Source of the DNA: Dipteris shenzhenensis
Lineage: Eukaryota
Assembly (NCBI GenBank): GCA_047967505.1
Contig: CM106538.1
Reading direction: 5' to 3' (one strand)
DNA: 64,000 bases
Every line of letters starts with the position of its first letter. Position 1 is the first letter of the stretch. Position numbers and translations under genes: made by a program. The notes beneath the pieces were generated by a model that did no database searches, was not told where the DNA came from, and saw only the letters and a list, made by a program, of their open reading frames with translations. Below, piece after piece: positions 13,401 to 46,572 of this stretch.

Positions 13401-16400
13401 ACAACACTAGGGTAAAGACCTTGGGAGTTGTGAAGAATCTAGAAGTAGATGTATGTGGAATTTCTGTGTCGATCGACTACTTTTCAAGTGATCCCTACCA
13501 AGCCCGATGCATGTTCCTATCTTTTGATTTTGGGAAGGCCTTGGCTATGCAAGGTCAAGGCTATTCAAAAGTGGGATACTGGAGAATTGATTTTATAGGG
13601 AAATGTTGATAAGAAGGTGCACTACAACATCAAAAGTCACAAAAAGAAAGTTGTCAAGTTGGAGTCTTCAACATCAGAGAGTTCGAGAGCTCTGACTTAA
13701 CTGATGAAGAAGAAGAGACAGGGTGTAGCTCCGAGAAGTCCAGCTCAGAGGGTGAGGTGGAAGGAGTGGCCTTTGGTCTTTGTCTTGCAGGATGAGTTAG
13801 GAGGGAACAAGTTGGTGGTACAAGAAGATCTTGTAGAACACTTCATGTGGAGGATGTGGAGCACACTAAATGACACCAATGCAATGAATAGCTACTTGGT
13901 GATTCTCTATTAGGTAGTGAGAAGCTCTAGTACTTGGATATGTTAGATGATTTTCCATATCTCTTTGCAACAAGCTAGCTTATTCACAGGTTCAACCAGT
14001 CTCTCTTGTGGAGCACAAGATTGAGTTGAAGCTAGAAAGCAAGCCAGTTGTGCAATTCTTAAGGTGATTGGGAGTGATCCAAGATGAGGCACTAAAGAAA
14101 GAGGTAACACAACTATTTGAGGCAAGATTCTCATCTTTCTTGTTGATGATTCAGAATGGATATCTCCTGTAGTTGTCACACCAAAGAAAGGAAATAAGTG
14201 ACAGGTATGTGTGGACTCTTTTCTTTGAATGCATGCACTAAGAGGAATCATTTTCCTTTGCCATTCCAAGATGAAATACTAGACCAAGTAGTAGGGCATG
14301 AGATGTATTCTGTATGTGATGGGTATTCTGAGTACTTTCAAATTCGCATTCAGGAGGAAGATCAAAAGAAGACATCATTTGTCACACCTTGGGGAGTTTT
14401 TGCTTATAGAGTCATGCCTTTCAACTTAACCAATGCACCAGCTACATTTCAAAGGTTCATGATTCAAGTCCTTAAGCCTTACTTGGGAAAGTTCATAAGG
14501 GTTTTTTTGGATGATTTTTGCATTTATTCTCAATGCATAGATCACATGGAGAAGTTAAAGATGGCCTTAGCTAGGATTGATGAAGCAAAAGGGTGTCTAA
14601 ATCCTAGCAACTATCATTTGGCTCAAACAAAAGTAGCCTTGTTGGGGCATATTGTGTTTGAAGAAGGCATGCAAATGGATCCTGACAAGGTTTAAGCAAT
14701 CATGGCATTGCCAAGTCCTGAGAGTGTCACTGGTGTTCACAGAATTCTAGGAAAGAGCAAGTATTATCAACATTTTTGTGATGATTTCATAGAGATAGTG
14801 CATCCCATGAATTTCTTTCCAATGGGGTGTGGAGCAACAAAGTCTATTCTAGGAAAGAGCAAGTATTATCAACATTTTTGTTGGCAAGAAAAGGAATTTC
14901 TTTCCAATGGGGTGTGGAGCAACAAAGTCTATTCAGCAACTTAAGGAGGCCATGAGTAAGGGCCCAATATTGAAGCCCCCTAATTGGTCTCAAGACTTTT
15001 ATATAAATCTAAGTGTGTCTTTGCATTCAGCTCATGCTATGTTGCTACAAAAAGGAGAGGTAGGTAGAATGCAACCCATCTATTATGCCAACTGATAGCG
15101 TACAGAGGTGGAAACAAGGTATGAAGAAATGGAGCAGCAAGCTCTCTCTTTGGTGTTTTCAGTTAGAAAGTTTCGCTCCTATTTATTACCTCGACCATTT
15201 TTCTTCCTTACCTCTCAATCTATATTAGCATATCTAGTTTGCAAGCCTAATCCTGGGGGGAGATTTACAAAATGGTTATCAAAGCCTCAAGATTTCTCTT
15301 TCTCTTTTATCACTAAAAATACCACTAGGTCCACTATGGCAGATTTGCTCACAGGGGACGAGAGGATGTAGGAGAAGAAAAGAAATGTAAGGAGAGCATT
15401 AAAGATGAAAGGGATACACCACCAACAGCTTTTGTTTTGTATTTTGATGGGCCTTTTAGTCCTTCATGCCAACAAGGAGCCACGAGGATAGTCTTGATGA
15501 ATTCTGAAGGTCAAGAGGTGTGGGCAAGAGGACAAAAGCTTCCAGGTATCACAACTAATAATGCAGATGAGTATAATGCTTTGATTCTTGGTTTAGAGGG
15601 TTATCTTCAAAGTCAAGTTAAAGAATTGGAAGTAAGAGGACATTCTCAGCTTATTATAAAGAAAATGCAAGGGCATTAAAAGACAAGAAGTCCTCATTTG
15701 AAGGAGCTTAATCAAAAGGCTATGGCATTATGTGGTCATTTTGCAAGTTTGTTCATATAAACAGAAAAGAAAATCAAAGGGCAGATGAGTTAGCTACTCA
15801 AGACATTGTAGTACAAGACAAGGAGGTGGTTTCTTTGGTAGACACTGGATCGCCAGAATTGCAAGATGTTCAACAATATGTGGAAGAAGGCATGTTTCCT
15901 CGAGGGTTAATTCCACAACAGAAGTAGAGATTGGTAAGGAAGGCTTGTCCCTATACTATTGTTGATGACATTCTTTATAAATTGGGAAAAGATAGGGTGC
16001 TCAGTCAGGTGGTCCATCCCATGGAGACTAGAAGAATCCTAGAAATGTATCATGAATGCTCTGGTCATTTTGCTTAAGCAAGCACAACTAGGAGAATTCT
16101 TAATGCAGGTTACTTTTGGCCATGCCTCCATAAGGATGTACATGAATGGTGTTGAAGTTATAAAGTGTGCCAAAAGTTTGGAACCTGATTCGTGGGCCCT
16201 TGAAGCCTATTCAAGCATATGGACCATTTGAGAGGTCGGTGGGACCACTCCGTCGCTCATCTCAGAGCAAACATTATTTATTGGTGGCCACAAATTATGC
16301 AACTCGATGGGCAGAGGCCAAGGCCATAGTCAATAGCAAGGCAAGCACGATTGCAAAATTTCACTTTGATCAAATTTGTTCATGCTTTGGTTGTCCTTTG

Positions 16401-19012
16401 GAAATTCTCACTGATGGAGAAACCTCTTTTAGAAATGAACTAATTGAAGATGTGGTGCATAAGCTAAAGATAAATCATAGCATGTCCACGCCATACTATC
16501 CCCAATGTAATGGCTTGGCTAAGAGAACAAATGGATTGTTGTGCAATTCAATGGCAAAGCTTGTAGACACCAAGAAAAGGCATTGGGATACGCACTTGGC
16601 AGAAGTCTTCTGGGTTTACAGAACCACATACAAGCTAGCTATTGGGTTTACACCATTCCAACTAGTGCATGGAATAGAAGCCATTTTGCCCATTGAATTG
16701 GAGATACATAGTCTTTGCACTATTGTTGCAAGAAAAGGACAGGAGGATGCCTATGCTCAATGCTTGGTACAGCTAGAAGCCTTGGATGAATGCAGATTAT
16801 AGGCCTTATAAATCTTGGAAGCTTCTCAAAAAAGGTGCAAGACCCGTTTTGCCACCAAATTATGCAAGAAGAAAGATATTGCAGAAGGAGATTTGGTCAT
16901 GAGATTTGATAGCTGTTTGGACAAGTTACTAGACAAAAAGTTTATCAGCCAATGGGAGGGACCATATCGAGTCAAGAAGAAGTTCACCAATGGAACCTAT
17001 CAGCTTGAGGATGTTGATGGCATGGTGATACCCGGATGCATCAATGAGTATTGCCTTAAATTCTTCTCTGCTTAACCACCTTGAGGGCCAGCAAAACTCT
17101 CGGCAACTAGAGAGGATCTGCTGGGGGGGAAAGATGTGACGCCAAAATTTGATATTTTTTAATTTAGCATTGGTATTGTTTTTCTCTATGTTTGATAAGA
17201 GTTTGAATTTCAAGTGATAGCCTAGTGGCTCTTACTTATTTCTATTTTCTAAGATATTGTATGGGATTGAGAGGATGAGTGGAATGGATCATTGTAAATA
17301 CCATGTGTATGAATGATGAATACCTTAGTATGGGATGAGAGTTATTTGTGTATGGGATATTATGGGATTTTGTAGAAAAAAGGAAGAGAGTCATATAAAG
17401 AAGTGGGCTCATGTCCATGTGTTCCAATGATATAAGAGAGATCACATGCCAAGCATGTGGAAGGCATATGGAGGAGTGTGGACTAAAGAAGAATCCTTCT
17501 AGAATTCCTATGTGGAATAAGGAGGATGTGGACATATGGAAAAGAGAGGGTCCCTATGGGCTCCATGTGGGGAGACTCTTGAATTTCTCAATATTTTAAG
17601 AGTCTTGAGCATATTTTGATGGGACACATGGCAAGAGTAGCCAAAAAGGACATGGATGGTGACATATGGGCTTATGTGATTGATGGGGAAAGGAATCTAC
17701 AGGCAGCAATTGTAAATGGGTGGAGGGTGACTAAATCTCTATAAAAGGAGCCCTCCTCTCCCTTGCTCAACATCTCTTCCACCATTAGGCCTCATGTTGC
17801 TGTAGCTCTAGTCTCCTCAAATCTCTTCCATGAGCCTTCTCTCCCTCTTGTAGATATTCTCTAATGTAGACTCTTGAGTCGATCTCTCTCTAGTTCATTC
17901 TCTCTCTATGAGTAGTCTTGGAGCTTCCGCTCCCTCTTGTATGTATGAAACCTCTTCTTCTCCCTTGTGGTTGTAGTATTTTGAGTTGCATTGGATGGAC
18001 CCCCACTCTATTGGCAATGAAGATCACTTCGTATTCGCTCTCCTGAGTCTCTCTTCCCTTTTCTTTGTTTCAAAGCCTTAAAAGTTCTTTCTATTCAGCT
18101 GCTCATTGTTGCAAACACATGGTCCATCCATTTCACAAGCCACCAAGGGAGTTACTTACCCTCTTCTAGGTGAAATCTATGAGTGGTGGATCGTTGATGA
18201 AGGTGGAGTCTTGAGGGAGCATCTTGCTCATGCGAAATTAGCATGGGTGGAGGGCAGTTTTTATGACAGTTTGACCCCCTATTAGTGTTTTGCTCATAAC
18301 TTTCTGCTCAGTAGTCCAATTTTGATGAAACTTATATCAACTCTAAGCTCTCTTCAAGACACATGGCTCTATGTGATTAGATAATACTACTGCAAACAGT
18401 TATGAGTCTCTGTGTCTGACAGTCTGTTTTCATGACAATTTTTACCTGCATCTAGTAAACTGCCCAAAACTTTTTGGCCACTTATTTTTTTCTTACGAAA
18501 CATATACAGCATGAAGCCCGCATCTCTATATGTGTTTGAATCTTTAATATCACGTCTTTATTGAAAATTATAGGCCTCTGTGTCTAATACAATTTGTAGA
18601 GTGTTTTAAGCTAATTGTAAAGGTATCTATGAAGGAGGTGCAATGTTTCCCTAGAACCTGCCCATCCGACCCAATCAGCCCCTTGAAACTCCTCGATATA
18701 TATCAGTTCATGTCATGTTGAGCCGCAAGATCTTCTTTCAATAACATATTGCTCTTCTCTTTGGCACAGACCGGCTTGCTGAGATTATGGCCTCTGCTGA
18801 TCCTTTCCTTCTCCCTATGCTTGAGTACAACATCACTTGGGATGTTACCATCTTCATTCTCATCTAAGGGAGGAAAGTATGGTGTGGTATCTTGGCATAA
18901 AAGCTTCTTTTTAATTTCCCTTTCTCAATCATAAATATCTTTGTCACTCAATTCAAAAGCAGTAGGAAGTGAAGAGGTGCGTGAAGTTTATTACCTCCAA
19001 CTTCATGTCACA
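10450..19012 (+). mobile_element. Full-length but decayed Ty3/Gypsy element of non-chromoviral OTA/Tat type, with an additional RNase H
   Basis: 5' LTR 10450-11408 and 3' LTR 17135-19012 (TGTGAC...GTCACA termini), PPT ggggggaaaga at ~17123-17134. It splits host integrase B between ..GDWV and LMFN.. Confidence 0.88.
12140..17075 (+). pseudogene. gag-pol: capsid, CCHC knuckle, protease, RT, RNase H, additional archaeal-type RNase H, integrase; many stops and frameshifts
   Basis: CYECNEKGHYRPDC (~12795); IDGGASINVM protease; CDGYSEYFQI and FLDDF in RT; additional RNase H YFDG...TNNADEYNALILGL...LEVRGHSQLII (15437-15679); integrase STPYYPQCNG and WEGPY. Confidence 0.9.
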
Positions 19013-19016
19013 ATAT

Positions 19017-19254
19017 TGATGTTTAATATAAAATTAGGAAAGTTTCTCGATAAATTAAAGTTGAGATATGATGGTTCATTCAAAATTGTGAAGGAACTAG
19101 GCCAAGGCACATTCCGACTAGCTGACGTGCATGTTTATATATCAATGAAAGCAATCAATGGGTTCTGATTGAAGCAGTCATCTTTATATATCGATGAAAG
19201 CAGTCAATGGGTTCTGAGACTGAAGCCATTTGTCATATTGAAGAAAAATTATAA
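19017..19254 (+). pseudogene. Gypsy integrase C-terminus, GPY/F region (host element B, part 2)
   Basis: LMFNIKLGKFLDKLKLRYDGSFKIVKELGQGTFRLAD...INGF*LK; continues the remnant that ends at 10449. Confidence 0.7.
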
Positions 19255-19256
19255 TA

Positions 19257-19283
19257 CGGGAGAATTGGGGTCTCCAAAGGGCC
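19257..19283 (+). repeat. Left terminal inverted repeat
   Basis: Matches the reverse complement of 28128-28154 with 2 mismatches. Confidence 0.88.
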
Positions 19284-20027
19284 CCCAATTAGTGTTTCCT
19301 AATTTCAATGGATAAGTGAGGTATTTGAGGTGTACCAATGGGAGTGCTCCTGCAAGTGGAGGGTGGATAGACCTGCAAATAGCCCCTATTGGCTACTCCT
19401 CTTACACTGGGGACCACTCAAACCATCCCCCCCCCCACTCAACCCATGCTTGACACTTTTCCCATATGCACCTCTCCCAAACAACCCTGTAAGTCATTCA
19501 ACATGCGGTGGGCCCTTCTGGGTGAATTTTTTCCCCTCTTAGCTTGTTACAAGCCTGGCCCCTCCTCTTCTCTGGTCCAGCTTCATTCTCCCTCCATTTT
19601 TCAAACATGGGAACTCACTTGGCAGCTTCTCTGCCCCCTCCTGCTCTGGTCCACTATCTTTCTCCCTCTCCAACACCTCCTATAGCAGCTGCTCATTCTC
19701 TCTCCATTCCTAGCTACATCACCTGCTACAGCAATAGCCCCTCTGCTTTTTCTCCCTCCAATCCTAGCTATAGTACCTCCTATAGTGGCTGCTCATCCCC
19801 CTCTGCTCTTTCTCCGTCCATTCCTGGCTACAACACCTCCTTGAGTAGCTGCTCCCCCTCTGCTCTTTCTCCCTCCATTCTAGCTATAGCACCACCTCTT
19901 AGAGCTTCTCTCAAACTTCAGTTGCACCCTCTATACCTTCTCCCTCTCTCTCCCTCTATCAGAGCTGCTCTCTCCCTTCAAGCTACAATTTCTAGTCCAC
20001 TATTGCTGTTGTGACCTCTATACAAGC

Positions 20028-21141
20028 ATGGTGAGGAGACCATACATGTATTATGTGTCCCATAGGAGCAAAAATGCACTGGGTGAATGGGTGCCTTGCA
20101 CCTATAGCTTGAATGATTGGATAGTCATGAGAGGATCGATCAAGGGTCCACACAAGCTTCCCAAGCGCAAAAGAGGTGATCTTTTGCATGAATGGAAGGG
20201 CTGCATCATGAAGTTCAAGCTTGGGAAGAAAGGATGGCTTGCAAAGGTGCAACACATCTACACGCGGAATGACATGCGCATTCCTCAGTCAAGCAATCAA
20301 TCAACAATACCATCACATTGTAATTATGCATTTTGTGTAAGATTTCGAAGTGTAATGAGTCAGTTTGAAATTATATTTTGAAATAGCACCAGTGTAATGA
20401 GTCAATTTGAAATTGTATTTTGAAATAGCACTTGTATATAGAAAATGTATTTCCTTCAGACTTTGAGGAGTGGTAACCAGTCGAGTGCTTCTTAGGTAAG
20501 TTTACTGCCATTCATGAGGATTTAGGAAGGCAAATGCTAGAGAGAAGTCCTCTGCTTTGAAACAGAGAAATATATATTGGTATAATGCCAAGTACATTAC
20601 TCCAAGGATGGCATCAGGCTATGGCCATCTTCAATGCATTGCAACACCACAACTTGAAGACATGGATTGCAGCATGGTGGACACAAGAACAGTGCAATCA
20701 TACAAGGAAAAGATTGCAAAGGACGTGGACATGGCCATGAAGTTTACATTTGGCTCTAAATGGGTAAGGTTGTCTTGGTTTATGCCTCTGCACATTTTTG
20801 CTTCTTGTTTTCAGAATATCCAAATGCACAGAACAAAAACCATGTGGTCATGCAAGTGCCTACATGAGAATGCCCTTGAGGAATTACTTGGGGTGAATTG
20901 GGAAAGCAGGTCAGGTGAACAAAAGGGTGATCTATTTCAATGCCATGTATGTAAGGACAATGTGGTTCTCAAGTACCACATCTCCCGCCAAATGTTATAT
21001 TTTGCTTTCCAATATAGGCGCTGGAAGAAAACATGTGGCAATTGGCTCCCTCTTAACTCTAACAATGATGATAATATAGAGGTAAATTTATGTATTGGTT
21101 CTCATTTAGGAGATGTCAAGAATGTGACTATCACATCATAG
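20028..21141 (+). pseudogene. BAH (bromo-adjacent homology) domain protein with an uncharacterised C-terminal domain; disrupted
   Basis: TYSLNDWIVM...EWKGCIMKF...LAKVQHIYTRND...NY[~120 bp interruption]VFPSDFEEW*PVECFLGKFTAIH...NIYWYNAKY follows the BAH pattern (Y.vgD.v.v; yvarI; vrvqwfyrp; Elflsd..d.vp...i.gkc.V; ffc...Y). One stop and one frameshift near 20475-20555. Confidence 0.65.
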
Positions 21142-21209
21142 GTTATAAAGTTACTTTAGTTTCAAAGTTTCACTATCATAGCCATAGTTCTCCTAGCTAC
21201 CAAACTACC

Positions 21210-22719
21210 ATGGATTCTACTAGATCTGCTGCGTTCCACAATTTCATCTCCCGTACTCCATTAGTTGATAGAGAGGAGGAGTTATTTCCAGTCTTTGATA
21301 AGAGCATAGATGTCCTAGGCACCCACTTGGGAGCCCGAGATGATTTCGAAGACCTCATCAAGTACATGCAAGACCACGTCACGAGTTTTGCATATCAACT
21401 TGATGAGTCTACAAAAAGATGGGTCCTAATTGATTATTTGAAGTACTTGTTCAACTAAGAACCCAGGTTCGAGAACCTAGGTTTGTGAAGCGTTTAGATC
21501 GCTTTCGAGCCTAGCTCTCACACTCCTAGGGTTTAGGGAGGTGGACACTGATGACCTCCTAGCATGCAGAGTCATTGAAAACACAGGAAATAGGTTCCTA
21601 TCCTAGGAAATGACCTTTATTTTCCTTCTCCAGAGGGACAAATGGAAGAGGAGGTCTCGACCTCAAGCCCTGCCCCTGCCCCTGCCCCTGCCCTTTTGGA
21701 TCCTCTTATTTCTGTAGATGAGCCCAACATCTACAATGAAGAGCCCATAGATAAAGAAGCTAAGGAGCAAGAAGATGCATTGGCCTTAGAAGTGCTCCAG
21801 CGACCTCCTGAACCCCATTCTACTTCTCAAATTCCATCCACCTTGGGCACCACCTCTGTTGACTCTGCAATAGTGATATGGTTTCTTGCTCCCCTTCTTG
21901 TCGATGGAGAACAATACCTCTTTCTCCATGACATCGAGGTTATGTTTGGTCTCCGAGAGAATGAAGCTCTTGGTGTCCTGTGTGGATACCAGGTGGACAT
22001 GACTATGCAAGAACCTGGGTTTTTGGGAGCAGATGATTAAATAGAAGAGATTCTTGCTTTAACACTGGCCAAAATCAAAGATGCAGAGACATCAATCTAC
22101 TCCAACCTACCTGATGTTCCAAAAGAAGCCTCCACATCTCACTCTGGATGTAGGAGGCCTTTGGATCCATCCTCATTGACAAAGAGGAAGGGATTGAGCA
22201 TGATGACTCCATAGTGGTAAGAAACTATGAGCTTTGAATTTCTTCTCTCTTGGTATAATTTTGCTGTAACGGAATTCTAATGTAATGTTGGACTATTGCA
22301 GGATGCATTTGAGGTCGACCTATTCTCATCTCAGCAACACCTTGTTCGCAGTAGCTTCGGCCGAGATCACTCACTTGCACATTACCTTGGCCAAGCAAAA
22401 GGGTGCTTTGTGGTTATCCACAAAAAGTGTTCTCCACATGGCACTGATGACCTTCTGAAGTGCAAGGCTTGTCACGAGTGATTGGTCATGATGACATCAA
22501 TCGCAATGCTACAACGTCATTTTGGTGAACTGCATGGCTGCCCTCAATGCTTTTGGAACCAATTTTCAAGGTATGGCATTGACGGTAGCAGCCATGTCCC
22601 TGGCCAGCAATAACGACAATAGCATTGACTCTCTATCAACTAGGTTTAGAGCTAGGATTGTATTTAGGAATTCAAAGCCCGATGTTCTCAGTGCTTTAGA
22701 AAAGAGAGAAAGGCTTTGA
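21210..22719 (+). pseudogene. Spliced gene of unknown function inside the TIR element
   Basis: ATG at 21210; coding-like segments at 21210-21600, 21634-22216 and 22302-22719; GT..AG intron at 22217-22301; AT-rich 3' region after 22720; several stops. Confidence 0.45.
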
Positions 22720-23281
22720 AGCCTTATTGTATATAATTTTTATTTTATATGAATATAGATATACTTTTTATACAGTGTCCCATTTTGTGTTCTTTTACAA
22801 AATTTATTTTATACTGTCATTGTATTTTGTAACTTTAATTATTGCTGGCATTAATATTTTCATTCACTATTCTATTCAAAAGCATGTTACTAGATAAATT
22901 TTTGTGCTATAATGGTCATTTCTGAGCAATCCAGTAAGAATCTCACCGTGGCGCAAAAGGCAAATGGGTTCAACATCATGCGGGGAGCTTAGAAATGTCA
23001 AAACCCGATCAAATAGGCTCCATATATGCCATACTAGGTTTTGACATTTTTGAGCTCCCCACACGATGCCAAACACATTTGCCTTCTGCGCCATGGCAAA
23101 AAAACATCATTTGACCACTCTAATTCACATTGAACTTGCATAAACTAATGGAAAGCATCACGTAACATGTATAATAACATGGGAATAGTAATAGAACATA
23201 AAAATATATTTTACTCATTGGCCTCAAAGGGTAGAGATTTACAAAATGATTCAGGTTACACCAAATGAACTTAAACAACAT

Positions 23282-24375
23282 CTAGGGCCCAAGGGAGGAA
23301 TCGGAGTAGATGCACTTGGCAAGTGCAAGGTCCTTGTCCATCACTATTACTCTTTTGGCATGGATAGCACATAAGTTCTCATCTTCAAAAAGACCTACTG
23401 TCATCTACTCCGTTACCTCTTGAATTGCTCCATAGCACCTGAAGTGAAGCGCACATCATCCTTGTAATGTTGTGCTATTTCACGTACAACATGTTGGAAG
23501 GGTGCATGAGAAATGAGATTGTCCACAATGGTTTGGAACTTGCGGATCTCTTGAAGTGCCTTGACGCTTGATTTTTTGCACCTCTTAATCTTTGGGGGAC
23601 CCTGCACTGGCCTCTGGACATGGCTGCTTGTCTGCTTTGAACTTTTTTTGCCTCTCCTCCCTTGCAACCGCCTCTTCATACTCCTCTTCTTGTGTCTGGT
23701 GGGTCCTTCAAGGTGGCTTGTTGTGCTTAGGGGTCTTCTTTGTCCTTGGTCCCTTTTCCTTTTGATGAGGCTGTGAGATAGTAGGCTAAGGCTCTTGCTC
23801 AGCTTGTACTAGAGGCTCCTCATATATGACAATCTCGAGGCGCAGAGGGTTGATGGTGCTCTTCCATGCAGTCTGCTTGGTTGGAGGATTGGGGCCAATA
23901 TAATCTGTGAGCCTGCCAAATACTTCCTCTTATTGTGGCCCCTTTAATCTCTCCATCTCCTCTCCTTGCCTTTCTTGCTCCCCTTGTTGGTCTAGATGTT
24001 CCATGCTAGGACCCCACGAAGGAGGGAGGGGCAGTTGATCACGATTGATTGGACTATTTTGTCCCTCTTGGGAGACCTCTCTACTTCCACAATTAGTTGT
24101 GTGGAAGGACTAAGAGGACCCCTGATCGTGCTTGGATGCTTCATCGTGCTGAGATTCCTCATGGTGCTGAGATCCCTCGGATCCCCCATGAGAGTCGGAT
24201 GGTGGGGACTTGCGTTGCTCAAACTCCTAATGATGAGAACCAACTTCAGATCCCTATTGATCATTGCCCTCTTGGCCACTGGGGCTTGCACTGTGTTTGG
24301 AGGCCATGGAGTTGTGAGGAGGAGAGTGGGTAAATGGCGTCCAGTGGGTCTAGTAGTTTGTTTAACTCATGCCAT
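23282..24375 (-). pseudogene. Histone H3-like gene with a greatly extended N-terminal tail (stops and frameshifts)
   Basis: Starts MA*VKQTTRPTG (cf. MARTKQTARKSTG). Histone fold reads [10 protein letters not shown]...[66 protein letters not shown] at 23300-23570. Confidence 0.9.
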
Positions 24376-24671
24376 AGAAATGAGGGATTTTAGGGTTTTG
24401 AAGTGCTTTATATAGTCTTTTTTAAAGCACTTTAGGGTTTTTCTTTTAAATTAGGGTTTTTTGAGTGCACCCCCTCCCCCCAGTCTTTTGTCGGCCAGTT
24501 TGGTAATACTTAATCTTCGCCACCCTCCCTCCCAACCCCCTCACCCCTTTGCCCTGCCATGTCGCACATGCAATTCTGCAATTTCCAAGCAAATTTGCGA
24601 ATTTTGGAATCTATAATTGACTCCAAACATTGTTAACTTTATTCATTAAACATTTTACACTTGGGGTACTC

Positions 24672-27442
24672 TTAGGACCCAACGCCTCCCCTATCTGACT
24701 CTATGTTGCAACCAAAGTGCAACCCCTTGGCTCTTGTTGAGGACTTCCAAGTAGCACATCTCCTTGTCTTCTTGACATGTTGAACTGCTTTTGCAAGACT
24801 TGAGACCCCAACCTTATTGTTCTTGAGAGTCTTGGCCTCTAGACATGTATAAAACTAGTTAAAAATTTCATGTAGTGCATTGCTTCATGCGATACCACCC
24901 CCATGCCTTATATTCTTAAAGTATGCTGGCTTTGCTTTGTAGTGCAATTTCTCCATTCCTTGAGTATTCCAAATGGATAGAGGGCCCCATTGCTCCACAA
25001 ACCATGGTGCATGTGTGTAAAGAATATGCTTTAAAGAAAAACATCGTATTAGAAACAAAAACTGACTCAAGTTTAAAGCATAAAATTTCAACCTAAGGAG
25101 GATTACCACATAATGTGTAATATGTGACTCCCCCCATGCTTCTACCATCAATGATATGAATTCTCCCAATGCTGTCCTGAATCTCTCATAATAAAACTCA
25201 TCTATTTAACCTTGTCTAAGCAACTTAATAAATGCATCAAGCTTTGTCCACAGTTTAACTCTCAAAGTAGCAATTTGTGGATATGAAGCTTGATTTGTAG
25301 TGCACTCACACAAATCTTTCTAGTACTCCCAATCTAGGGTGCTTTGAGCCAATGTATGTTTTTCTTTATTAGCATTGTGGTTGGACATGTACCTCCTTGC
25401 CTTTCCTCCACCCATGGACACTTTAGCAGGAAGATTTTGTGTCTTTCCTGATTGTTTCTTATCCTGCTTGAGCTTCACATTGCGTTTGTGAAGTCCCATC
25501 AATGAGAGTAGTTATTTAGCCTTTGCAATGCATTGTGCAGATACTTCTTATGGCCTCAAATTCCAAGCATAAACTAGATGGAGATAGAGTAACTTATCAA
25601 GTATACACAGTTCAACATGCAAAATACACATGTGTACCCACTCCAATGGAATTGGTAGAAGGGGGTCCCACTTAGGATCCTTTTTTTGACGATTAGGGGC
25701 TACACTTTGGTTGCAAGAAAGGATGCTAGTATCACAACCATACAAGCACTTGAGGGTCTTTAAATCACTAGCCAGATGCCATTCAACTTGATACGTTCCA
25801 TGCCCATCCACTATTAATGTGTGCCCTACCTCTTGTCTTTGAATAATCGACGGGATGCCGGTTCTCTTCAAAACCCACTTCAATGTCTCATGGCACTCCT
25901 TTGTGGTCTCAAAGGCTGCAAGCCACCATATGTCCTTACCCTGCTCAACTTCCTCATCCCCTTGAGCAAAACGCAAGGCATCGTTCATAATCCAAATGCT
26001 CACCCTCTCTATCTTGTGCTCTTTTACCAACTGAGCTTCATCCATTTTTATAACAAATACTAGCTTGCCATCTATACAATGGAAGAGAAATATAGTAAGG
26101 ATATAGAAATGAGAAGAAATAAAGTTGAATGTGAAGAGGGAATTTCTCTTACCTTCTTCTCTCATCCCATAGAATTTGACCATGGCTCTCTACAAATTCT
26201 CTGCATCTGCATAAACATTATTCAAAGCATTCATCTCAAACATTTGGATGCCAGATTTTCTTTTACTCTTCCAAGTCATTGTGCCACTTACACAATGGTA
26301 TCCTCCAAGACTTTCTCTAGCACATTGGTTTGTTTCTTGATGTGCAAGCCTTACAGACCATGGTGTTGGCAATGGCATTGTAGATATCTTATACTTTTCC
26401 TCCATAGCAGACTTGAAAATTTTAAAAGTAGAGTTGTAAGCTTCACGACTTACACCAGCAACATCACAAGCTCCAAGCACCTCCTTTGCTTGCACGAGGC
26501 CCTTGAAGTCCTTCATTACCTCTCTAGCAACTTGTTCACATAGCCCTTTTTGTCTAGGGTCCTTTAAAACTTCAATGACATCACTTGGCTTTATTAAACT
26601 TCTTAGATCATATGAAGGATCACTATCATCCATTTCCATTATTCCCATCACATCCTCCATGAAATTCCTAAAGTAGAGTATAAATGAGTCTTAGTGGAAA
26701 CAATGCAACACCACAAATATTTTGAAGTAAAAAATTTCATTGAAAATTTGGGGAACTAACCTTGCAGCCCATATTCTCCTCTTTTGGGCACCACTATTGG
26801 TTGACAATGCATCCATAGATTGCAATTGTCTTTTCCTCTCCTTCAATTTCAAAGGTGTTCCCTTCAACTTTGTACTCGTTCTATCGACTTCTCTTGTTCC
26901 TTCTCCATAGCACGTTGAACTTGGCCATAGATAGACCTTTCCAAATCTTGTTTGCTTTCAGCGAGCTTCTGGATTGATTCTTCCAATTCCTGTCGCTCTA
27001 AGTCTAGTGCACGTGTTTTGTCACTGAGTTCTTTGTTTTGCAATTGGAGATCCTGCATACTATTATGCATTGCCACAATAGTAATATTTCCCAAATGTGC
27101 AAGTTCTTCTACTTGGGCTCTCTACACCTCGCTTGCTTGCATAGCCAATGTCTGAGAATGGTTCAATCAATTTCAATAACTAAGCAATCCAGCATGTCCA
27201 TTGCCAACAAACTAAACAACATCATGCACTGTATGAAAAGGAGGATTCTTTAGGGTGGCAGGGTCTAAAGGATACAAGTTTCCATCCACCCAAAGGTCAA
27301 GATGCTTCTTCCCTTGCAATCAAAGGCTATGGAGCACACTTTGAGGCATTCCACTATATCCCAAATGGTGTGTGCTTGCATATTCTACCTCTAGTTGTAG
27401 GTTCACATGGTACTTGTTGGATATGTCCTCCAATGGTGCCAT
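24672..27442 (-). pseudogene. RAG1/Transib-like DDE transposase, spliced (about 3 introns), with stops and frameshifts
   Basis: In order: SREAYNS...LPTPWSVRLA; FVIKMD (D at 26040-26042); KECHETLKWVL; HLASDLK (D at 25764-25766); CILHVEL; SMGGGKARRYM; ITHYV|HILYTHAPWFVEQWGPLSIWNTQGMEKLH (E at 24951-24953). Introns at about 26670-26760, 26072-26151 and 25029-25106. Confidence 0.75.
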
Positions 27443-27499
27443 GAGTACTCAAAGAGAGGTATCAGTGATGCAAGCTAAAATGTAGGGGAGAGCTAGCAA

Positions 27500-27955
27500 A
27501 GATGGAGCAGTGAGAGGGAGAGAGTAGCAAGGAAGAGGGAGGAGGAGAAGCAGATCAAGGCAAGAGGAAGAGGAGAAGGAGAGTAGGGTGATGGTGTAGA
27601 AGGGAGGGAAGGAGCTACTGCAAAAGGGAGGAGGAGGGGAGAGATGCTGCAGGAGGGAGGAGGAGGGGAGAGATTTCGCAAGAGGGAGGAGCAGAGGAGA
27701 GGGAGCTTGGGCAGCTAGAGAAGGAGGGGAGAGGAAGGAGGGAGGAGGAGCCAGAAGGAGGAGGAGGAGGGGAGGGGGAGGAGGGAGGAAGAGGAGCAAG
27801 ATGGAGGAGGGGAGAGGAGGAGGGAGGGGGAGGGAGAGGGAGAGGGAGAGGGAGGAGGAGGGAGGGGGGTGGAGGGAGGGAGGGAGGGAGGGAGGGAGGA
27901 GGGGGAGGGAGAGAGAGAGAGGGAGGGAGAGAGAGAGAGAGGGAGGGAGGGAGAT
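27500..27955. repeat. GA-rich low-complexity tract
   Basis: Runs of GGA/GAG/GGGA. Confidence 0.9.
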
Positions 27956-28127
27956 TCAAAATTTGAAATTCAAATTTCAAAAAGTGTCCCCCTCCCCTCA
28001 TTGATGGGGGGAGAGGTGGGCTCAAATGTGGGCTTAACCCATGTAGGTTGGGCTAGTTAGGCCTCTTTGGGACCCTCCAAGCCCCTTGCATAAGCCCACT
28101 AAGCACTCCCTAATCCATTCCTTATGA

Positions 28128-28154
28128 GGCCCTTTTGAGACCCCAATTCTCCCC
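28128..28154 (-). repeat. Right terminal inverted repeat
   Basis: ggcccttttgagaccccaattctcccc followed by TA. Confidence 0.88.
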
Positions 28155-28389
28155 TAATGGATCTAACTTCGGACCATTTGGTCGGACATCGGACTTTTGG
28201 AGATCCAATGTTTGGGTACATTGGGCTTTAAAAGAAGAAATCATGCAAGAAAGTTATGACAGTGACACTTCCCACATGCAAGCATTCTATCACATGTAGA
28301 AATCAGCATTTCACTTTGCTCACAATAGTCATTCTAAATTCCTCATCGTCCTTCATGTGTTTCATCTCTACTATCCCCATTGGTTTCTC

Positions 28390-30600
28390 AACATGCAGAC
28401 CACTCTCAAACCTGTAGCTAAAGAGCACACATTATGGGAAGGCACTGCCAGTAGTTCATCTAGCCTACAAGTAATGGTAACTTTCTGCAACTCATTAGCA
28501 TGCAAAAGGAAACGACCCCAAGCATCATGGTGGTCATTGCGCAATCAGGTGAGTGCAAACATAGATGATAAAGCAGTGGAGTCACCTTGACCTGCAAAGA
28601 AAAGGTCTAAAGATAGCAGCTAGCTATGATTTTTAGGATTTTAAACATGATTTGAATACAACCAATCCCTAAAATGTTGCTAGATGTGATTTTTAGGATT
28701 TTAAACATGATTTGAATACAACCCATCCCCAAAATGTCACATGGCTACATAAAATGGGATTGCATGAATACTATCATTTGCCATGGTGGGAGTGGTGGGA
28801 GTGGGCTATGAATATGGAGGCCCACAATAAGTTTGATCATTTGAGGAATATGAAAGGCTTGCTTACACCAAAATTACCACCGATGATAGTGGAATTAGTA
28901 TCCCATGTTTTCAATTTGCCATTGATTCCTGAGGCCCCAACTAAATCTTCGAGCAGATATCTAGACGAAGTCATGGTCAAAGAGTTCGGGCAGTAGGTTT
29001 ATTCCAAGGCATATTTTATGTAAAAAATTCTTTGAAGGGTCAGCAGTGCAGAGACTAGTGCAAGTGGTTTCTAAAGTGAGTGTTGTAATATGATTATATT
29101 TCTAAGGAAAATTATTCATGAATGCATTTTGCTAAATTGGGAAATCCTATAAATTGGGTTGCTTTTATGCATTAGAGAATAATGGGAGAGATTAGTGGTA
29201 AGGAGAAGCGTATAAGTACTACACATAGCAAGCTATGACGATCGATTCTGTATGCCCTATTTATCCAAATTTAGGAGGGTTCAAAACCACATCAATGTTG
29301 ACCATTTTCAGATGGTGAAAGAGAACCAGTTAATGAGCATATTAGGGAGGAAATTCCAAAAGAGGAAACAATTAAGTTGTTGAAGGAGGCTGGATATGAC
29401 CAAGTACAAATTGATGTAGTAGTGGGAGGGCAAAATCACCACTAAAAATTACTCAATAACAAAGTAAGCTAGAATCAATAAAAAATACCAAGTTGAAAAT
29501 CAGATGCATGATCACACTGAGGAGACCAAGTAATATAGCTAAATAGGAGCATAACAAACTTTATCAATGCAGATGAAGCTATTGCACTCCTACAAAGATT
29601 TCAAGCACAACAGAGGGAATAGTACAGGGGAATGCAAAATGTCTATTTGGAATGGCAAAAACTAAAAGAATACAATGACATTTTAATGGAATAGAACCAC
29701 TATTTAAAACAAGATCTATAGTATAAAGTGGAGGAGCAAAAACTGTTAGTAGAACTGTTTGAAAAAGAAAAAATGAAATTATAGCAAGATGATAGGATGA
29801 AGATCAACTGAAATCCAAATTAATGACAGTCAACAAACTACAGAAGCATTAAGAAAATGGTCAGTCCAGATTCAATAGGGACTATTTAGAGAATTGGGGA
29901 AGTTGACAGAGAAGAATAGCAAGTTATTTTTTGAGAAATTATTGTTGAAATAAAAGATCATAGCACTTGCTTAGGTGGAAGATCAACTTAAACATATGTA
30001 GGATGAAGAAGAAATAGAAATTGCAAGAACATTCATGCCTCCCACTACATAATTTGAAATACAAGACAAATTAACATAATATATGGTTTAGTTGTGGGCA
30101 CAAGTGGGAAACAGATGTATGGTTGAGTTGTGGGCATAGGTGGGAAACACATTACTTCATTTACAGACCCAACCAGTTTAGCAGTGGGATGATCACATCT
30201 AAAATTTGCCTATATTTCTATTGAATAAGGAAGTGCAAGAATTGAAAAAGGAAGTTTATGCATTAAGGATTAAGTTGGCAAAGACAAAGGAATCTAAGAC
30301 AATAGGCTCTTTATCTCAAGAGGAGTCAAAACATATGATTAGAAAGGAACCTGAAACTTCCTCTACACAATCTTTCTCCTTTTAAGTCTTTTCTTGCTTT
30401 TACAACCCTTGATTTGGAAGAAAGAATGATTGTAGAAAAAAAATATACAATATTAGATTCTTTGACAAAAAAGGAGGCAGCAAATACCCTTTTGATGACA
30501 TAAACATAGAAAACTAGATATATGAATGTGGAAATCCATGAGATTGATGATGATGATTGTTGGCTCTTTCCCATGGCTTCCACATTAGAAGAGTAGGGTT
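28390..30600 (+). pseudogene. Decayed additional ORF 3' of the integrase of host Gypsy B (conserved domain followed by a long coiled-coil-like region)
   Basis: WLHKMGLHEY..LPW, GLLTPKL..IVELVSHVFNLP, MVKEFG and NPINWVAFMH*RIMGEI resemble 3400-3950. E/K/Q-rich fragments follow downstream. Confidence 0.5.
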
Positions 30601-30868
30601 TTCTCAATATGCAGGGTTTCAAGGCTTTTTGTCACCTACATATATATAGGGGTTGTTGTTTGTAGAATACATGTAGCTTAGGACCTCAAGTCGTATTCCG
30701 GTGAGAGACGTAGGCTTAAGTGTGGTAAGCAAACATAGTGCATGCATGTGTAAAAGGAACATGTATCATCATGGTTGAGGTAATGAAGGCTTTCGCCTTC
30801 ATTAGAGGTTGAGGGGTTTAGGAGGAGTTTAAGGGTTAGAGGGAAGTTCAAGGTTTAGAAGGAGGTCC

Positions 30869-33194
30869 TATTGGAACATGGGGAGAGAGGAGAGCTTCAT
30901 CATGGAGGTGAGTGAGAACACATGAGATATAGCAATGGGTGTTCTATTCATTGTGAGAAGGAAGTCCCTCTTTTATAGAAATGGAGAGAGGGTGGCCTAA
31001 ATCAATGGCATCTCTCCTACATCAAAGGAGGTAGCTTCTAAATCATAGGAACTCCACAATCATAGGCACCACCCCATTTGGGGGCCTTTGTATTACATCA
31101 TCACATGTGTCATGGTCTATGGCACTAAGTGTGCCTCTTCTACACACACCCAACCATATGACTGCTAGTGGATGCACACATGCACTTAGCAAGCCCTTGA
31201 TCACACATATCCCAACATCCCCCCCTCAAGGGTTTGCCTCTTACAATGTCAAGGATATATCTAGTCTCATCGTTTCTCATGCCATCTCATGGTGGTCAAG
31301 GATAAATCTATGTCTAGGATCTCATGCTAGCAAAGGTGCCCAAGGGTCAAGGTTTACAAAATTGGGATAGACCCCCCCAAATGGTTATATCTCTTGCATG
31401 TACAAGGATTAATCATAGGCCTTTGTGTGGACCTAGTTTCTCATTTCTGTAAGAGGTACCATGGGAGCAAACACACATCACATGGCCTACATCATATGGT
31501 GATTAGAGGTGATTTACAAAGACTATATGGACTAAAGCAAAACCATAACATTCTTTTTGGAGTACTAATCCAGGTAGAGAACCTCAAAATTGACTACATG
31601 ACAAAAAGATGATAACTAAATTCAAAAGACAAAGTGCTCGAAAGGCATAGTCCTTGTCTTCTACCACAAAATTTGATTCTTCATTTATTGATGGAGTCTT
31701 TCCTTTAGCAAGATTTTCTTTGTTGTTGATGCAACTCTTCTTCACATGAAATGCTTCATTCTCTTGGGAGTCATTCCTCTCCTCTTCTTGGGCTTGTCTC
31801 TTGGAGAGCAGCTGTAGAGAAAACCTTTTTAGATGGCAATACTCCATAGTATGATTGGGTACTCCACAGAAGGCACATATCTTTTTCTTGGTGTTCACCT
31901 TGATGAAATATTCACCATTACAGAGCTTTACTCTCATTCTAGGCTTCTTTTGGAATGCTTTCCTCTTAGATACATAATCAATGTTAGAGGAACAATATGA
32001 TGAAGGCATATTGGGAAGGTCTTACCACTAATGTGGTAGTGTCTAGTCCCTTACAAATAAGTCTCCTTCTCCACAAAGTATAATTGGTTGGAGAGATAGT
32101 TAGATACCCCAAACTCTTAACATAAAGGAAATACAATGTTTATTGCTTCAAAAAATAGCATTCAAGCATATTCAAAACATAAATGCATTATGAGCATTTA
32201 CCAAAACTGTTAAATTGAGGATAGTGCTCCAAAGAGAAGACTGAAAAATGCCTTAGATCACTTCCAATGGTCAAACATCCAAAAGACCAAAGATAACTGA
32301 CATAATAATGAAACTTTCTAGCACTTAACGATATTCAATGGTTCATCTTAGAAGCATGTTACTGTCACCCCCAAATCGAGAAGTCTAAAATTGGAGGGTG
32401 CAATTGAAGCTAAAGAGAAAAGCTTTGAGAGGGCATTTAAAGGCAAATGGAAGCTCTTATTACTGACTACTTCCAGGAGAGAGGAATGGCAAAATTGCGT
32501 GTTTTATCATCGTGGAAACATGCGCTTATTTTGACTGGCTTTTTGCTTTTTTTTTGCAAGCATTTGAGCTTAAATTTCATGAGCAGCAAGTTCATAGTGT
32601 CACCCACCTCCTATGGCTAAGAGGAATTGGCAAAATATTGCATTAGTAGGCAAAATTGCTTGAAAGTTTGTCGAGTAGAGATCGTGTCAGCACGGGTTGT
32701 AGAGGGCATCTCTCCCTAATTACTTGGTGTCAAAGGTGCACCCTAAGTAGAGCAAACTTCAGCTCAGAGGGCTCTAGGAATGGTCGCTTATTGGAGGAGA
32801 ATGGGGAGCTAAGCAAAATCTGGAGAGAAAGAGGGTAGAAATGAAGAAGAAGATGGAGGGTGGAGAAGAAGATGATGAGGTGGCATATTGAAGCTACAAT
32901 GGGCTAGGGACTCAAGGAGGCTTTGATACCAAATGTTGGAACTTGGGGAGAGAGGACAGCTTCATCATGGAGGTGAGTGAGAACACATGAGATATAGCAA
33001 TGGGTGTTCTATTCATTGTGAGAGGGAAGTTCCTCTTTTATAGAAATGGAGAGAGGGTGGCCTAAATCAATGGCACCTCTCCTACATCAAAGGAGGTAGC
33101 TCCTAAATCATAGTAACTCCACAATCATAGGTACCACCCCGTTTGGGGGCCTTTGTATTACATCATCACCTGTGTCATCGTCTATGGCACTAAG
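30869..33194 (-). mobile_element. Decayed, internally deleted LTR element (probably Copia-derived)
   Basis: LTR at 30869-31217 and a truncated LTR at 32934-33194. PBS TGGTATCAAAGC on minus at ~32920-32931, PPT at 31218-31228, and a knuckle CAFCGVPNHTMEYC in ORF 31584-32009. Confidence 0.8.
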
Positions 33195-33499
33195 AGCATG
33201 GGGGAAAGAAGAGAGAGGAGGGAGGAAGAGGGAGGAGGAGGAGGAGGAGGGAGAAGGAGAAGGGAAGAGAAGGGAGGAGGAGGAGGGAGGAGGAGAGGGA
33301 GAGGATGGGTTGCAAGGTTGGAGGAGAGGAGAGGAGGAGTTGCAAGGTTAGGACATGCTTTTGGACGTGGAGTGCAAGGAAGCATGGACACTTGAGAAAA
33401 TTGCTTGGAATACCAAAGCAGAACTCAACACAATGTCCCAAAGAGTCTCGGCTTCATTCCATTATGGGGTATTTATACAAGTTGGAGAGCTTCTCTCTC

Positions 33500-33725
33500 T
33501 GCATGTAGGAATTGTAAGACATTCTCTCTCTACATGTAGAACTTGCATATAGAAGTTGCATGTAGGAGTTGCATGTAGAACTCGCATGTTGCATGTTGCA
33601 TGTAGGAGTTGCATGTAGAACTCGCATGTAGGACATGCATGTAGGAATTGCATGTAGGACTTGCATGCAAGAGTTGCATGTAGAAGTTGCATGCATGTAG
33701 GAATCACAAGTAGAATTTGCATGTT
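33500..33725. repeat. ~13-bp minisatellite (TTGCATGTAGGAG-like)
   Basis: Directly visible repeated gcatgtag core. Confidence 0.85.
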
Positions 33726-33899
33726 GAGGATTCCTAAGAGAGATTATTCCTAGCTTTATGCAAGTACAAGCAAAGCTTTGCCACACTGCTCTACACACAC
33801 ATTCTCTACTACCTAAGTCCATGTTAACACAGAGACAACATACTCCTAGATCCATTTTATTACCCGTCCTCGGGTTATGGCTTATTGCAAGCATGTAGC

Positions 33900-36800
33900 T
33901 GAATTGCCATGCCTTTAGTCCAATGGTTGTGGAACTTGTGTCATGCTAGTCGCGACGATCCTACTGTAAAGCCTTGGCACCATACAATGTTTGCTCACTT
34001 TCCAAGTAGCCTGTATCCACCATTTGTTCGAACAGAGATATGTGGCAGGCAAATGGGTATCGAGGTAACATGGGACCTCCAGAATGAATTCCAATGTTTT
34101 GCAGAAGATAGCACTTAGGCAAAGGAAGCGATCAATGTTGCCGCGCATTATTTGCTGATGCTGCTGAAGTGCTTGGATCATTGTGCCTTGGATATTCCAT
34201 TCTACACTAGAGTATGGCTCGATCATTGGCCAATTGATGGTGCAATCTTCATCCAAGGTGTGTATGTTGGCTTCCCATTTTTTATATCGTGGAACTGCAT
34301 AGAAGTTGGGATGGGTTCTGAGACATGGAGGTGCACGTAGGTACCCTTTCAAGAAGATTACATCAAAGAGCTTGGGATGGCACCAATCAGGTTGTGGATT
34401 CAACTTGCTCATCCAACCTTCACTAATTTGACACTGACGAAGGTTGGTAGGAAAGTTGTCCAGGGTCCATCCACCTCAAGTTTTCATATCAGGATATTTG
34501 CTCCAAATTTCCTCGATGGGGTTACTGGGAAGTGGTATCTCATCAAAATCATACCCATCATTGGAACTTGGCATGGGAGTATGAATTGGATTATTCGGAT
34601 CCTGATATTCAAAATCAAATACTGTGTCATTTTCTACTGATGGAAGGACAAGTAGTGTTGGAGGTGATGACAGGGTAGGGAGAGAATCTGGGGACATGGG
34701 GGAGAAATATGGAAGAGTGTTAGTTGTGGAAGGGGGAGTAGAGGGGAGGGGGGAAGAATTGGGCAAATGGTTTGATCAGCTTGGTAATCCTCAAGGGTAG
34801 GATTAGCAAGGGAAGGGAAGAGGCTAGGTGTGAGGAGCTCATAAGTTTGTGACTATTGGGTTAGTTGAAAATGGTGATAGGCATGAGCAAAGAGACGATG
34901 GAGGAAATAGATGTTAGGATGGAGGGAATAGATGTTAGGATGGAGCTCGGGGAGGGTTAAGAGGGTGGTAGCAACAAGGGTAAGTGAGGTTATGAGGTTG
35001 TCAAAGAGAGTGGTTAGATATGGAAAGAGAGTGTTAGTTGTGGAAGGGGGAGTAGAGGGGAGGGGGGAAGAATTGGGCAAATGGTTTGATCAGCTTGGTA
35101 ATCCTCAAGGGTAGGATTAGCAAGGGAAGGGAAGAGGCTAGGTGTGAGGAGCTCATAAGTTTGTGACTATTGGGTTAGTTGAAAATGGTGATAGGCATGA
35201 GCAAAGAGACGATGGAGGAAATAGATGTTAGGATGGAGGGAATAGATGTTAGGATGGAGCTCGGGGAGGGTTAAGAGGGTGGTAGCAACAAGGGTAAGTG
35301 AGGTTATGAGGTTGTCAAAGAGAGTGGTTAGATATGGAAAGTTGGATGTGAGATAGGCCCTGTCATCTTCCGACACTTCTTTTGCTGGTAAAATGGGATC
35401 ATCAGCAGCTGCATGGGTGGGATGTCGGTTATGTCATGCCTTGCAAATAATAGTGATGGCCTTTGTGGCAATGGCAACAAACTAGCAATAACCCTGAGGG
35501 GAGGACTACCCATGAGGCATACATATGCAATGAAAGCATCCGTCCTGAGTGCTATAAACCTGGCATGTGTAGATAGGCAGAAGATATTTTTCTCATCTTT
35601 GGACAAGTGTTGGCAAATTATGCGCAGAGTTTTGGTCCTTATGGAACATTTCCATTTGATTGTTGGATGAGCAGATATGATCTTGATTTGGAGTTGCTTC
35701 CATTGGATAAGCACACGTGTGTTGAGGTGATCTTCCACTTGTAGAGCAGCCACAAGCTCTTGGTACACCACCGTTGTGCATTATAGTGGGGCTTCATTGG
35801 TGTTGTCTTCCATTGCCTCATTGTTGTGCACTAGCAATTGGAGTTCAAGCTTAGAGATGATTATCTTTTGGGAGTGGATCTCATTCCATTTTTCTTTGTA
35901 TTTCTGGTAGATGGTTGTACATGCCTCCTTAAGCTTTCTCATTTGCAAGGTGACCTTTGCCTATTGAGGAATGTCTTCAGTGGTATTGGACCATTGGTCC
36001 AAGACTTGTGCTTGTGAAGTGCTGGCCTCTTTAGCGGTAGCAAGTTGGTCCTTTACGATTCTGCATTCCCTTGTAAGCTCATCAATGCTAAAGGCACGTA
36101 CTGCGCCAAAGATTGTTTCATGTCTTCAAGCTTTGTCTTTGTAATCCTGGAGCTCTTCTTCTTTGTGAATTAGAGTGAGTCGAGCTTGTGCCACTACCTC
36201 CATCTACTGAGCATGTGTGGAGGTCAAGGAGTTATAGTAGGTCTGTAGGAGTAGGTCTGTAGGTTTGCCATTGCTTGTACTGCTGTTGTTAGCTTTGTTT
36301 GACTTTGGTGGAGGTTGGAGGTCATGTCCCTCACTGCCTTCTCTTGAGATTGGAGAGCTTGGTTCATGCGCACTTCTTCTACCTCCTTCTCATCTATCTG
36401 TGCCCGAAGTGCCTTGACCTCTATAGCAATTGCCTGGAATTGGTCTTTGATTTCTATTGCAGTCTGTCTATCCAATTCTCTTGCATATTCTTCCTTGGCC
36501 AAGCTAGTGAATAGTTTTGACATTTGGATCATTTGGCTAGCTTGATGTTGGAGAATGACAGACGGTGATGAGGACTGGCGATATTGCTGATACAAGTGGT
36601 GCCCATGTAGCCACCCTGATGATTTTGTAGTACTTATAGGAGGTTGTTCCAATGGTATTTCAGTCACTTATGTACAATAGTCATACTGTTGATCTGGCAC
36701 TAGCTCCCCTTGTGGCTCATCGACTAGCATGGCGTCAATGGGCGGTTCTAGTGTTGATGTAGCCTCAGGCTCTGGTGCCAATTTTTCCTCGGGCTCTAGT

Positions 36801-46541: not shown

Positions 46542-46545
<4 letters not shown>
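42875..46545 (-). mobile_element. 5' part of a second Ty1/Copia element (LTR, PBS, leader, gag, protease, start of integrase), truncated at the neighbouring Copia
   Basis: LTR ~45762-46545 (TGAT...ATCA); PBS TGGTATCAGAGC at 45748-45759; gag from ATG 44426; CFYCGKKGHFKKDC, WILDSGASFHVT, LWHRQLGH, LELVHSDVCGP. Confidence 0.85.

Positions 46546-46572
<27 letters not shown>

Follow-up and report, generated by a model that had tools for sequence, protein, structure and literature searches.

A decayed transposase gene in Dipteris shenzhenensis belongs to a transposon family with a predicted RAG1/Transib-like core and a convergent second gene

The 64,000-nucleotide (nt) stretch of Dipteris shenzhenensis DNA analysed here over its whole length (hereafter the window; GenBank assembly GCA_047967505.1, contig CM106538.1) carries on its minus strand, at 24664..27421, a broken gene that is most likely a dead transposase copy of a cut-and-paste DNA transposon, from a family that would fall in the CMCT clade and, by the comparisons that we ran, nearer to RAG1/Transib than to CACTA. 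RAG1/Transib is the textbook case of a transposase turned immune enzyme, RAG1 being the protein that cuts antibody genes, and its relatives outside animals are sparse. The assignment draws on homology within the family, on conserved residues, introns and the decay of the window copy, and on a match of the predicted fold. This kind of element has probably been described already, and the window copy is of interest for the family to which it belongs, where a conserved convergent partner gene and a fold match over the whole core are the features worth following.

The gene was delimited with tblastn searches of family relatives against the window, in which the relative P0157 aligned from 27421 to 24849 (E 5e-120, 35% identity over 721 columns), the full-length relative P0001 gave E 1e-82 and the alignment of another, P0004, extended to 24664. 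All the peptide strings that had been quoted in the first-pass annotation, a model's reading of the letters alone, were found on the minus strand at 24885-26690 (SREAYNS, FVIKMD, KECHETLKWVL, LASDLK, LYGCDTS, CILHVEL, SMGGGKARRYM, ITHYV and HILYTHAPWFVEQWGPLSIWNTQGME), within stop-to-stop open reading frames (ORFs) that run from 24885 to 27121, and the presence of these transposase strings together with the family matches is far beyond chance. Still readable in the window copy are the first putative catalytic Asp (FVIKMD, codon 26040..26042 on the minus strand), the second (LASDLK, 25764..25766, minus strand), an HxCxxH, the HxxxxH and the putative catalytic Glu (TQGME, 24951..24953, minus strand), which correspond to D404, D501 and E779 for the three acidic residues in the numbering of P0001, used throughout. 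Asp occupies the first of these positions in 54 of the 72 members aligned there, the second is invariant in the long members (25/25), and the third, Glu in 27 of the 39 members aligned there, aligns to position 962 of the mouse RAG1 chain. Missing is the CxxC expected after the second Asp, whose loss the same annotation had ascribed to an internal deletion, and rightly so, since relatives carry ~25 additional residues with a PC..C motif (C521 and C524) between LYGC and DTS, and these, zinc ligands included, have been removed in frame at 25725..25745 (minus strand). The stretches aligned to P0157 hold 12 in-frame stops besides the one in an intron, and the tblastn alignments change frame near 26890-26960. 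Because the CxxC is missing and the 12 stops are present, the window copy cannot act and, to judge from its sequence, it is a dead relic with no functional consequence of its own.

Introns were read from the reverse-complement sequence and set against the alignments of the relatives, and the gene has three GT-AG introns, all on the minus strand, in keeping with the spliced gene that had been proposed. Intron A (93 nt, 26668..26760), after ...KRRIWAAR, is a segment absent from relatives; intron B (81 nt, 26072..26152) falls between YGMREE and DGKLVFVIKMDE, where relatives are contiguous; and intron C (78 nt, 25029..25106) separates ITHYV from HILYTH, the very join that had been assumed at first reading. 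The position of intron C is conserved in the family, with the same break (ITHY[MI] / HI) recurring in all four genomic contigs examined (L006, L008, L010 and L012), and the gene models P0157 and P0079 read through it.

The family to which the window copy belongs is large. The central ORF of the window copy is 42-44% identical to proteins of ~900 amino acids (aa), and a profile of four relatives, searched against 1.84 billion proteins, matched 1282 cluster representatives when the cut-off was E<=1e-3, 539 when it was 1e-10 and 90 when it was 1e-30 (representatives at 50% identity, most of the 1282 being fragments). Names are attached only to members from Klebsormidium nitens (GAQ83906.1) and the fern Adiantum nelumboides (chimeric gene models), the remainder coming from ENA, Logan and JGI contigs; both named sources are streptophytes, one an alga and the other a fern, and to these the window contributes a copy from a land plant. 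A Pfam scan of the window ORFs and four full-length relatives detected no transposase domain. The family has no Pfam model and is missing from nearly all plant protein sets, which matters for genome annotation. Across 150 aligned members, D404, D501, C521, C524, H580, C582, H585, H755/H760 and E779 are conserved (C521 in 57 of 67 members and C524 in 55 of 66), with H497, D501, H580 and H585 invariant in the 25 long ones. Intact members, of ~900 aa, have a conserved N-terminal box followed by a long coiled coil and then the core. A coiled-coil-like N-terminus had been noted from the window sequence, in agreement with the weak coiled-coil matches, the only ones that Pfam gave at the window N-terminus, and with a single long helix (65-133) in the P0001 model described below.

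Two clusters, those of P0001 and P0003, hold intact 898-900-aa members that are at least 90% identical and come from numerous independent data sets (62 and 25 members, respectively) on contigs of 3-5 kb, a recurrence that points to expression or recent activity of some members. Near-identical intact proteins that recur in this way, along with conserved introns, also speak for the intact 900-aa relatives being domesticated host genes and the window copy a decayed paralogue of them. We nevertheless hold domestication to be very improbable, given the great size and diversity of the family (the 1282 representatives), and given that several copies in one assembly share only 64-76% DNA identity and have broken frames, that the catalytic residues are conserved, and that the window copy is dead and sits between inverted repeats.

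The fold was predicted with AlphaFold2 for the intact 900-aa relative P0001, from the 150-sequence alignment, and not for the broken window copy. The model had a mean predicted local distance difference test score (pLDDT) of 78, with most blocks in 360-800 above 90. In it, D404 lies on strand 396-409, D501 ends strand 490-500 ahead of a helix (502-508) and E779 is on helix 776-792, so that in the model the three are arranged as they should be in an RNase H-like transposase. We then have the comparison with known structures, where the first-pass annotation had taken best hits to another superfamily as the outcome that would refute a RAG1/Transib assignment. No such hits came out on top: in Foldseek searches of the PDB, all 49 matches at E<=1e-3 were to RAG1, BbRAGL or HzTransib (best 6oeo_C, 2.8e-12), with the P element transposase following at rank 50 (E 1.1e-2). 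Likewise, the top 35 entries in VIA-align comprised 30 of RAG1, one of BbRAGL and four of HzTransib, with Z-scores of 21.4 for the best RAG1 entry (root-mean-square deviation 4.8 over 444 residues), 19.6 for BbRAGL and 19.3 for HzTransib (392 of 480 residues aligned), as against 10.8 for the P element, 8.4 for ISCth4, 8.0 for Hermes and ~7 for retroviral integrase cores. Because model residues 235-837 align with RAG1 479-1008 in mouse entries (498-1029 in the top entry's own numbering), the match extends beyond the RNase H fold and spans the RAG1 core modules that follow the nonamer-binding domain. The predicted structure thus supports a RAG1/Transib-type catalytic core in the family.

In sequence, only the HxxxxH...E region resembles RAG1, and marginally so. 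When the 150 members were run singly against Pfam, the sole transposase family matched was RAG1 (PF12940), by two members at E<=1, and the better match (E 0.0032, profile positions 553-593) scored 16.1 bits against a gathering cut-off of 25 and hence stayed below threshold. In a phmmer search of the member P0035 against all PDB sequences, each of the 15 chains at E<=10 was RAG1 (best E 0.0041), and its HxxxxH and Glu aligned (over 928-965) to positions 937, 942 and 962 of the 1040-residue mouse RAG1 chain, which we take to be two zinc ligands (937 and 942) and the catalytic Glu (962). A profile of the C-terminal third (A5) yielded RAG1 in eight of nine PDB hits (best E 0.1), in register from an NG..AR.L motif to the catalytic Glu; the window's central ORF gave no RAG1 among PDB sequences. 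The motif-by-motif pairing with RAG1 in the first-pass annotation thereby gains sequence support, from A5 and P0035, for its two C-terminal pairs, and the other five have structural alignment only behind them. Two of the RAG1 strings that it had cited could be compared, ITNY...EGNE agreeing with the mouse RAG1 chain in the PDB alignment and NG..AR.LM appearing, in its zebrafish RAG1 version, in the A5 alignment. Language-model look-alikes, which serve as leads and not as tests, were headed by RAG1 clusters (0.95, 191-195 shared features); with RAG1 families set aside they were DUF1280 (0.95/0.94), Transposase_21 (0.87/0.86, 130-131 shared features) and Plavaka (0.85).

Metagenome contigs scanned with the family alignment provided 17 loci. 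In all five contigs with enough downstream sequence (L006, L008, L010, L011 and L012), the transposase gene is met tail to tail by a conserved second gene, ORF2, encoded on the other strand; L012 has an intact ORF2 (619 aa; L012:3467-5323:-), and the ORF2 copies are 23-45% identical to each other. Putative ORF2 remnants, convergent with the transposase gene, were located in the window at 21594..22716 (plus strand) with a hidden Markov model (HMM) and tblastn. The HMM, built from four metagenome contigs with the window excluded and searched against all six-frame window ORFs, matched best at 21594-22037 (plus strand; E 2.9e-4, HMM 247-287) and second best at 22495-22716 (plus strand; E 0.62, HMM 433-490), the two being colinear and on the same strand, and tblastn of the L012 ORF2 aligned to 21831-21980 (E 1.4e-4) with a shared Y.LL.DI..LF.LRE motif. 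As judged from these alignments, what is new here is a conserved convergent second gene with apparent remnants in the window. Our literature search retrieved no account of the family's fold or of this gene, and Repbase Reports and supplements, which may hold one, lay outside that search. ORF2 had no Pfam hit at E<=0.01, and its model, derived from only eight sequences, was mostly helical and of low confidence (mean pLDDT 46); this model gave no Foldseek match at E<=1e-3, the winged-helix rows having a probability of at most 0.25, which we do not count as evidence. No RAG2, Kelch or PHD signature was seen in ORF2, either with Pfam or in the same low-confidence model. Beyond the ORF2 start in two of the contigs are palindromic or repeated short units of ~22-38 nt (L006:5009-5257 and L008:5051-5291), clusters that may be subterminal transposase-binding repeats.

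Around both genes of the window the sole strong inverted repeat pairs 19255..19283 (plus strand) with 28128..28156 (minus strand), 29-nt arms that are 93% complementary and that we tentatively consider to be the left and right terminal inverted repeats. Their 26-nt core is present at exactly two places in the window, where 100 shuffles give an expectation of 0; both arms begin A(C/G)GGGAG and not CACTA, AAT or TA is found on both outer sides, and similarity between the ends is weak beyond ~30 nt. Within these candidate ends, a CT-rich subterminal low-complexity tract at 19500..20010 (plus strand) is mirrored by one at 27449..28060, CT-rich on the minus strand and upstream of the transposase gene, and blastn of the left against the right end returned many inverted CT/GA-rich matches (19555-19980 vs 27481-27954). 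The element therefore has a probable span of 19255-28156, or 8.9 kb, with ends that are provisional because they come from one decayed copy. The terminal repeat motif of the window was absent from the 17 family loci, no inverted repeats linking the flanks of L006, L008, L010 and L012 were found, and copies within one assembly (64-76% identical, in coding DNA only) are too diverged for the ends to be defined by comparison.

How, then, should the family be classified? The CMCT clade comprises CACTA, Mirage, Chapaev, Transib, Plavaka, ESTA as well as Lanisha, which have a D, D, CxxC, H, HxxxxH, E pattern in common and mostly CA..TG termini with 2-5-bp duplications (PMC12730594). The family has the complete motif set (D404, D501, C521xxC524, H585 together with H580, H755xxxxH760 and E779), of which the window copy lacks only the CxxC. 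Because the whole clade has this pattern, the motifs alone do not single out Transib. CACTA, whose gene layout is co-directional, is the clade's common member in plants, and this counts for the family being a divergent CACTA/EnSpm-type element in which the RAG1 resemblance is the general CMCT signature and nothing more. The pattern itself, given as D, D, C(2)C, H(3-4)H, E for all CMCT lineages, and the description of Lanisha as EnSpm-like (PMC12730594) would fit such an element, as would the subterminal repeat tracts, the presence of more than one gene, the possible 3-nt duplication (AAT) and the family's being, like CACTA, common in plants. However, none of the 150 members matched a CACTA Pfam family, Transposase_21 and DUF4218 included, at E<=1 (HMMER filters can drop matches above ~E 0.1), the look-alike score to Transposase_21 (0.86-0.87, 130-131 features) was lower than that to RAG1 (0.95, 191-195), the candidate termini do not start with CACTA and the two genes are convergent, all of which makes a CACTA/EnSpm origin improbable.

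Equally small is the probability that we give to the family belonging to the Transib superfamily in the strict sense, that is, to single-gene elements with 5-bp duplications and recombination signal sequence (RSS)-like CAC termini. RAG1 and HzTransib were the best structural matches, RAG1 was the only Pfam transposase hit and its clusters led the look-alikes, yet the Pfam match came from just 2/150 members and fell short of the cut-off (16.1 vs 25 bits), the search around the gene gave no CA-starting inverted-end pair apart from the weak one reported below, and the candidate ends, themselves uncertain, are flanked by AAT or TA and show no 5-bp duplication. Transib elements are described as 3-4 kb long, with one gene for a transposase of ~700 aa, 5-bp duplications and RSS-like ends (PMC1131882), whereas the family has a transposase of ~900 aa with an N-terminal coiled coil, a conserved second gene, introns and a probable element length of 8.9 kb. 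Of the RAG1/Transib assignment made at first reading, the RAG1/Transib-like core has therefore held (Foldseek, VIA-align, phmmer of P0035) and Transib proper has not, given the subthreshold Pfam score, the two genes, and the lack of any 5-bp duplication or CAC...GTG termini among the ends found. The same reading had called a land-plant member notable, which overstated its novelty. Although none was found in plants in 2005 (PMC1131882), 39 Transib-like proteins have been reported in plant assemblies, including Juglans, Capsicum, Hordeum and Silene, and ascribed to horizontal transfer (PMC9435367), and Lanisha was proposed as a cut-and-paste superfamily from the moss Ceratodon purpureus (PMC8245031; Repbase Reports 2020; GenBank MT647524) and is described as similar to EnSpm (PMC12730594). 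That the family is the Lanisha lineage is a guess that could fall either way: like the family, Lanisha comes from a land plant, moves by cut-and-paste, has been placed in the CMCT clade and carries the 2C/3H/DDE motifs (PMC12730594, PMC8245031).

Several points weigh against the placement of the family nearer to RAG1/Transib and against the two-gene element drawn around it. AlphaFold was trained on RAG1 structures, and the placement of the three acidic residues was read from the order of the model's secondary-structure elements. To our knowledge, no CACTA, Mirage, Chapaev or Plavaka structure has been solved, so that the fold search cannot tell these from Transib. The resemblance to RAG1 in sequence is marginal, at E 0.003-0.1, and extends over 38-110 residues only, and PDB searches returned no RAG1 at E<=10 with the whole-protein profiles (A1 and A2), with a profile of the RNase H domain plus CxxC (A6) or with the last exon of the window copy by itself. 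In the window, ORF2 is matched only weakly (E 2.9e-4 and 0.62). The ends derive from one inverted repeat in one copy, with a possible 2-3-nt target duplication that chance could give, and a comparison of 16000-24850 with 27400-36000 revealed no CA...TG termini, only a single weak CA-starting pair (21/30 matching), in an old copy whose ends may have decayed.

With a RAG1/Transib-like core as the preferred reading, the family shares with RAG1 and BbRAGL the predicted fold match over RAG1 479-1008, the alignment in sequence of HxxxxH and Glu, and a CxxC ~20 residues past the second Asp. It differs from them in having no significant whole-length sequence similarity, in carrying a conserved box and coiled coil instead of a RING or Chapa N-terminus, in the second gene, which shows no RAG2, Kelch or PHD signature, and in its ends, none of those found being RSS-like. 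HzTransib resembles the family in its fold (Z 19.3) and in combining DDE residues with a zinc module, and ProtoRAG in having a second gene convergent with that of the transposase (PMC9435367). The core of intact members would have all the domains that follow the nonamer-binding domain in the RAG1 core, and in the same order, with D, D and E on an RNase H-like domain that the CxxC plus HxxxxH zinc module interrupts. By analogy with RAG1 and HzTransib, a transposase dimer would bind both element ends and nick each of them, the freed 3'-OH would attack the opposite strand and leave hairpins on the flanking DNA, and the excised element would be inserted through strand transfer. We infer this chemistry from the analogy alone, just as the element ends and any role of the second gene are our inferences. 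A bolder proposal, which we rate as unlikely if somewhat less so than the CACTA/EnSpm and strict Transib readings, is that a deep lineage of RAG-like transposons with two genes is peculiar to streptophytes, its transposase having the complete architecture of the RAG1 core and its conserved convergent partner a RAG2-like accessory role, while being seemingly unrelated to RAG2. If true, the RAG1-plus-partner layout would reach the green lineage, beyond animals and the pelagophyte Aureococcus. The family itself would serve as an outgroup for tracing the origin of the RAG1 core and its accessory subunit.

Inside the tentative element, the order of features is left repeat, ORF2 remnants (plus strand), a 151-nt foldback, a histone H3-like pseudogene (minus strand), the transposase gene (minus strand) and right repeat. 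The foldback, at 22946..23096 between ORF2 and the H3-like pseudogene, consists of two 60-nt arms, 83% complementary and 31 nt apart, and is possibly an inserted miniature inverted-repeat element. The H3-like pseudogene, at 23282..23808 (minus strand) between ORF2 and the transposase gene, matched Pfam Histone (PF00125) in two pieces (E 4.4e-7 and 2.1e-6) and H3 in a phmmer search of the PDB (E 5e-11); it carries a basic, divergent N-terminal tail along with a single frameshift and a single in-frame stop, and may be a passenger or a later insertion, a candidate for element content at most. In the Adiantum gene model P0170, a fragment of the family transposase is fused with a divergent histone-fold piece. 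Identity of that piece with the window pseudogene was considered and rejected, their similarity being only generic (33% over 39 residues) and tblastn of P0170 giving no hit there.

The rest of the window is repeat-rich. Broken remnants of long terminal repeat (LTR) retrotransposons were identified at 12740-16799 and 40013-42438 on the plus strand and at 43333-43890 and 46502-48193 on the minus strand, with domains that include aspartyl protease, RVT_1, RNase H and integrase; Pol_BBD, rve and SH3_retrovirus; zf-CCHC; and Integrase_H2C2 and RT_RNaseH. Among ORFs of at least 100 aa, the only apparently intact host gene is an uninterrupted pentatricopeptide-repeat ORF of 753 aa at 49824-52082 on the minus strand (PPR_2, E 6.6e-84), which fits a land-plant origin of the DNA. 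DUF4283, a domain frequent in plant retrotransposon-derived genes, was detected in an ORF at 59610-60014 on the minus strand (E 1e-16).

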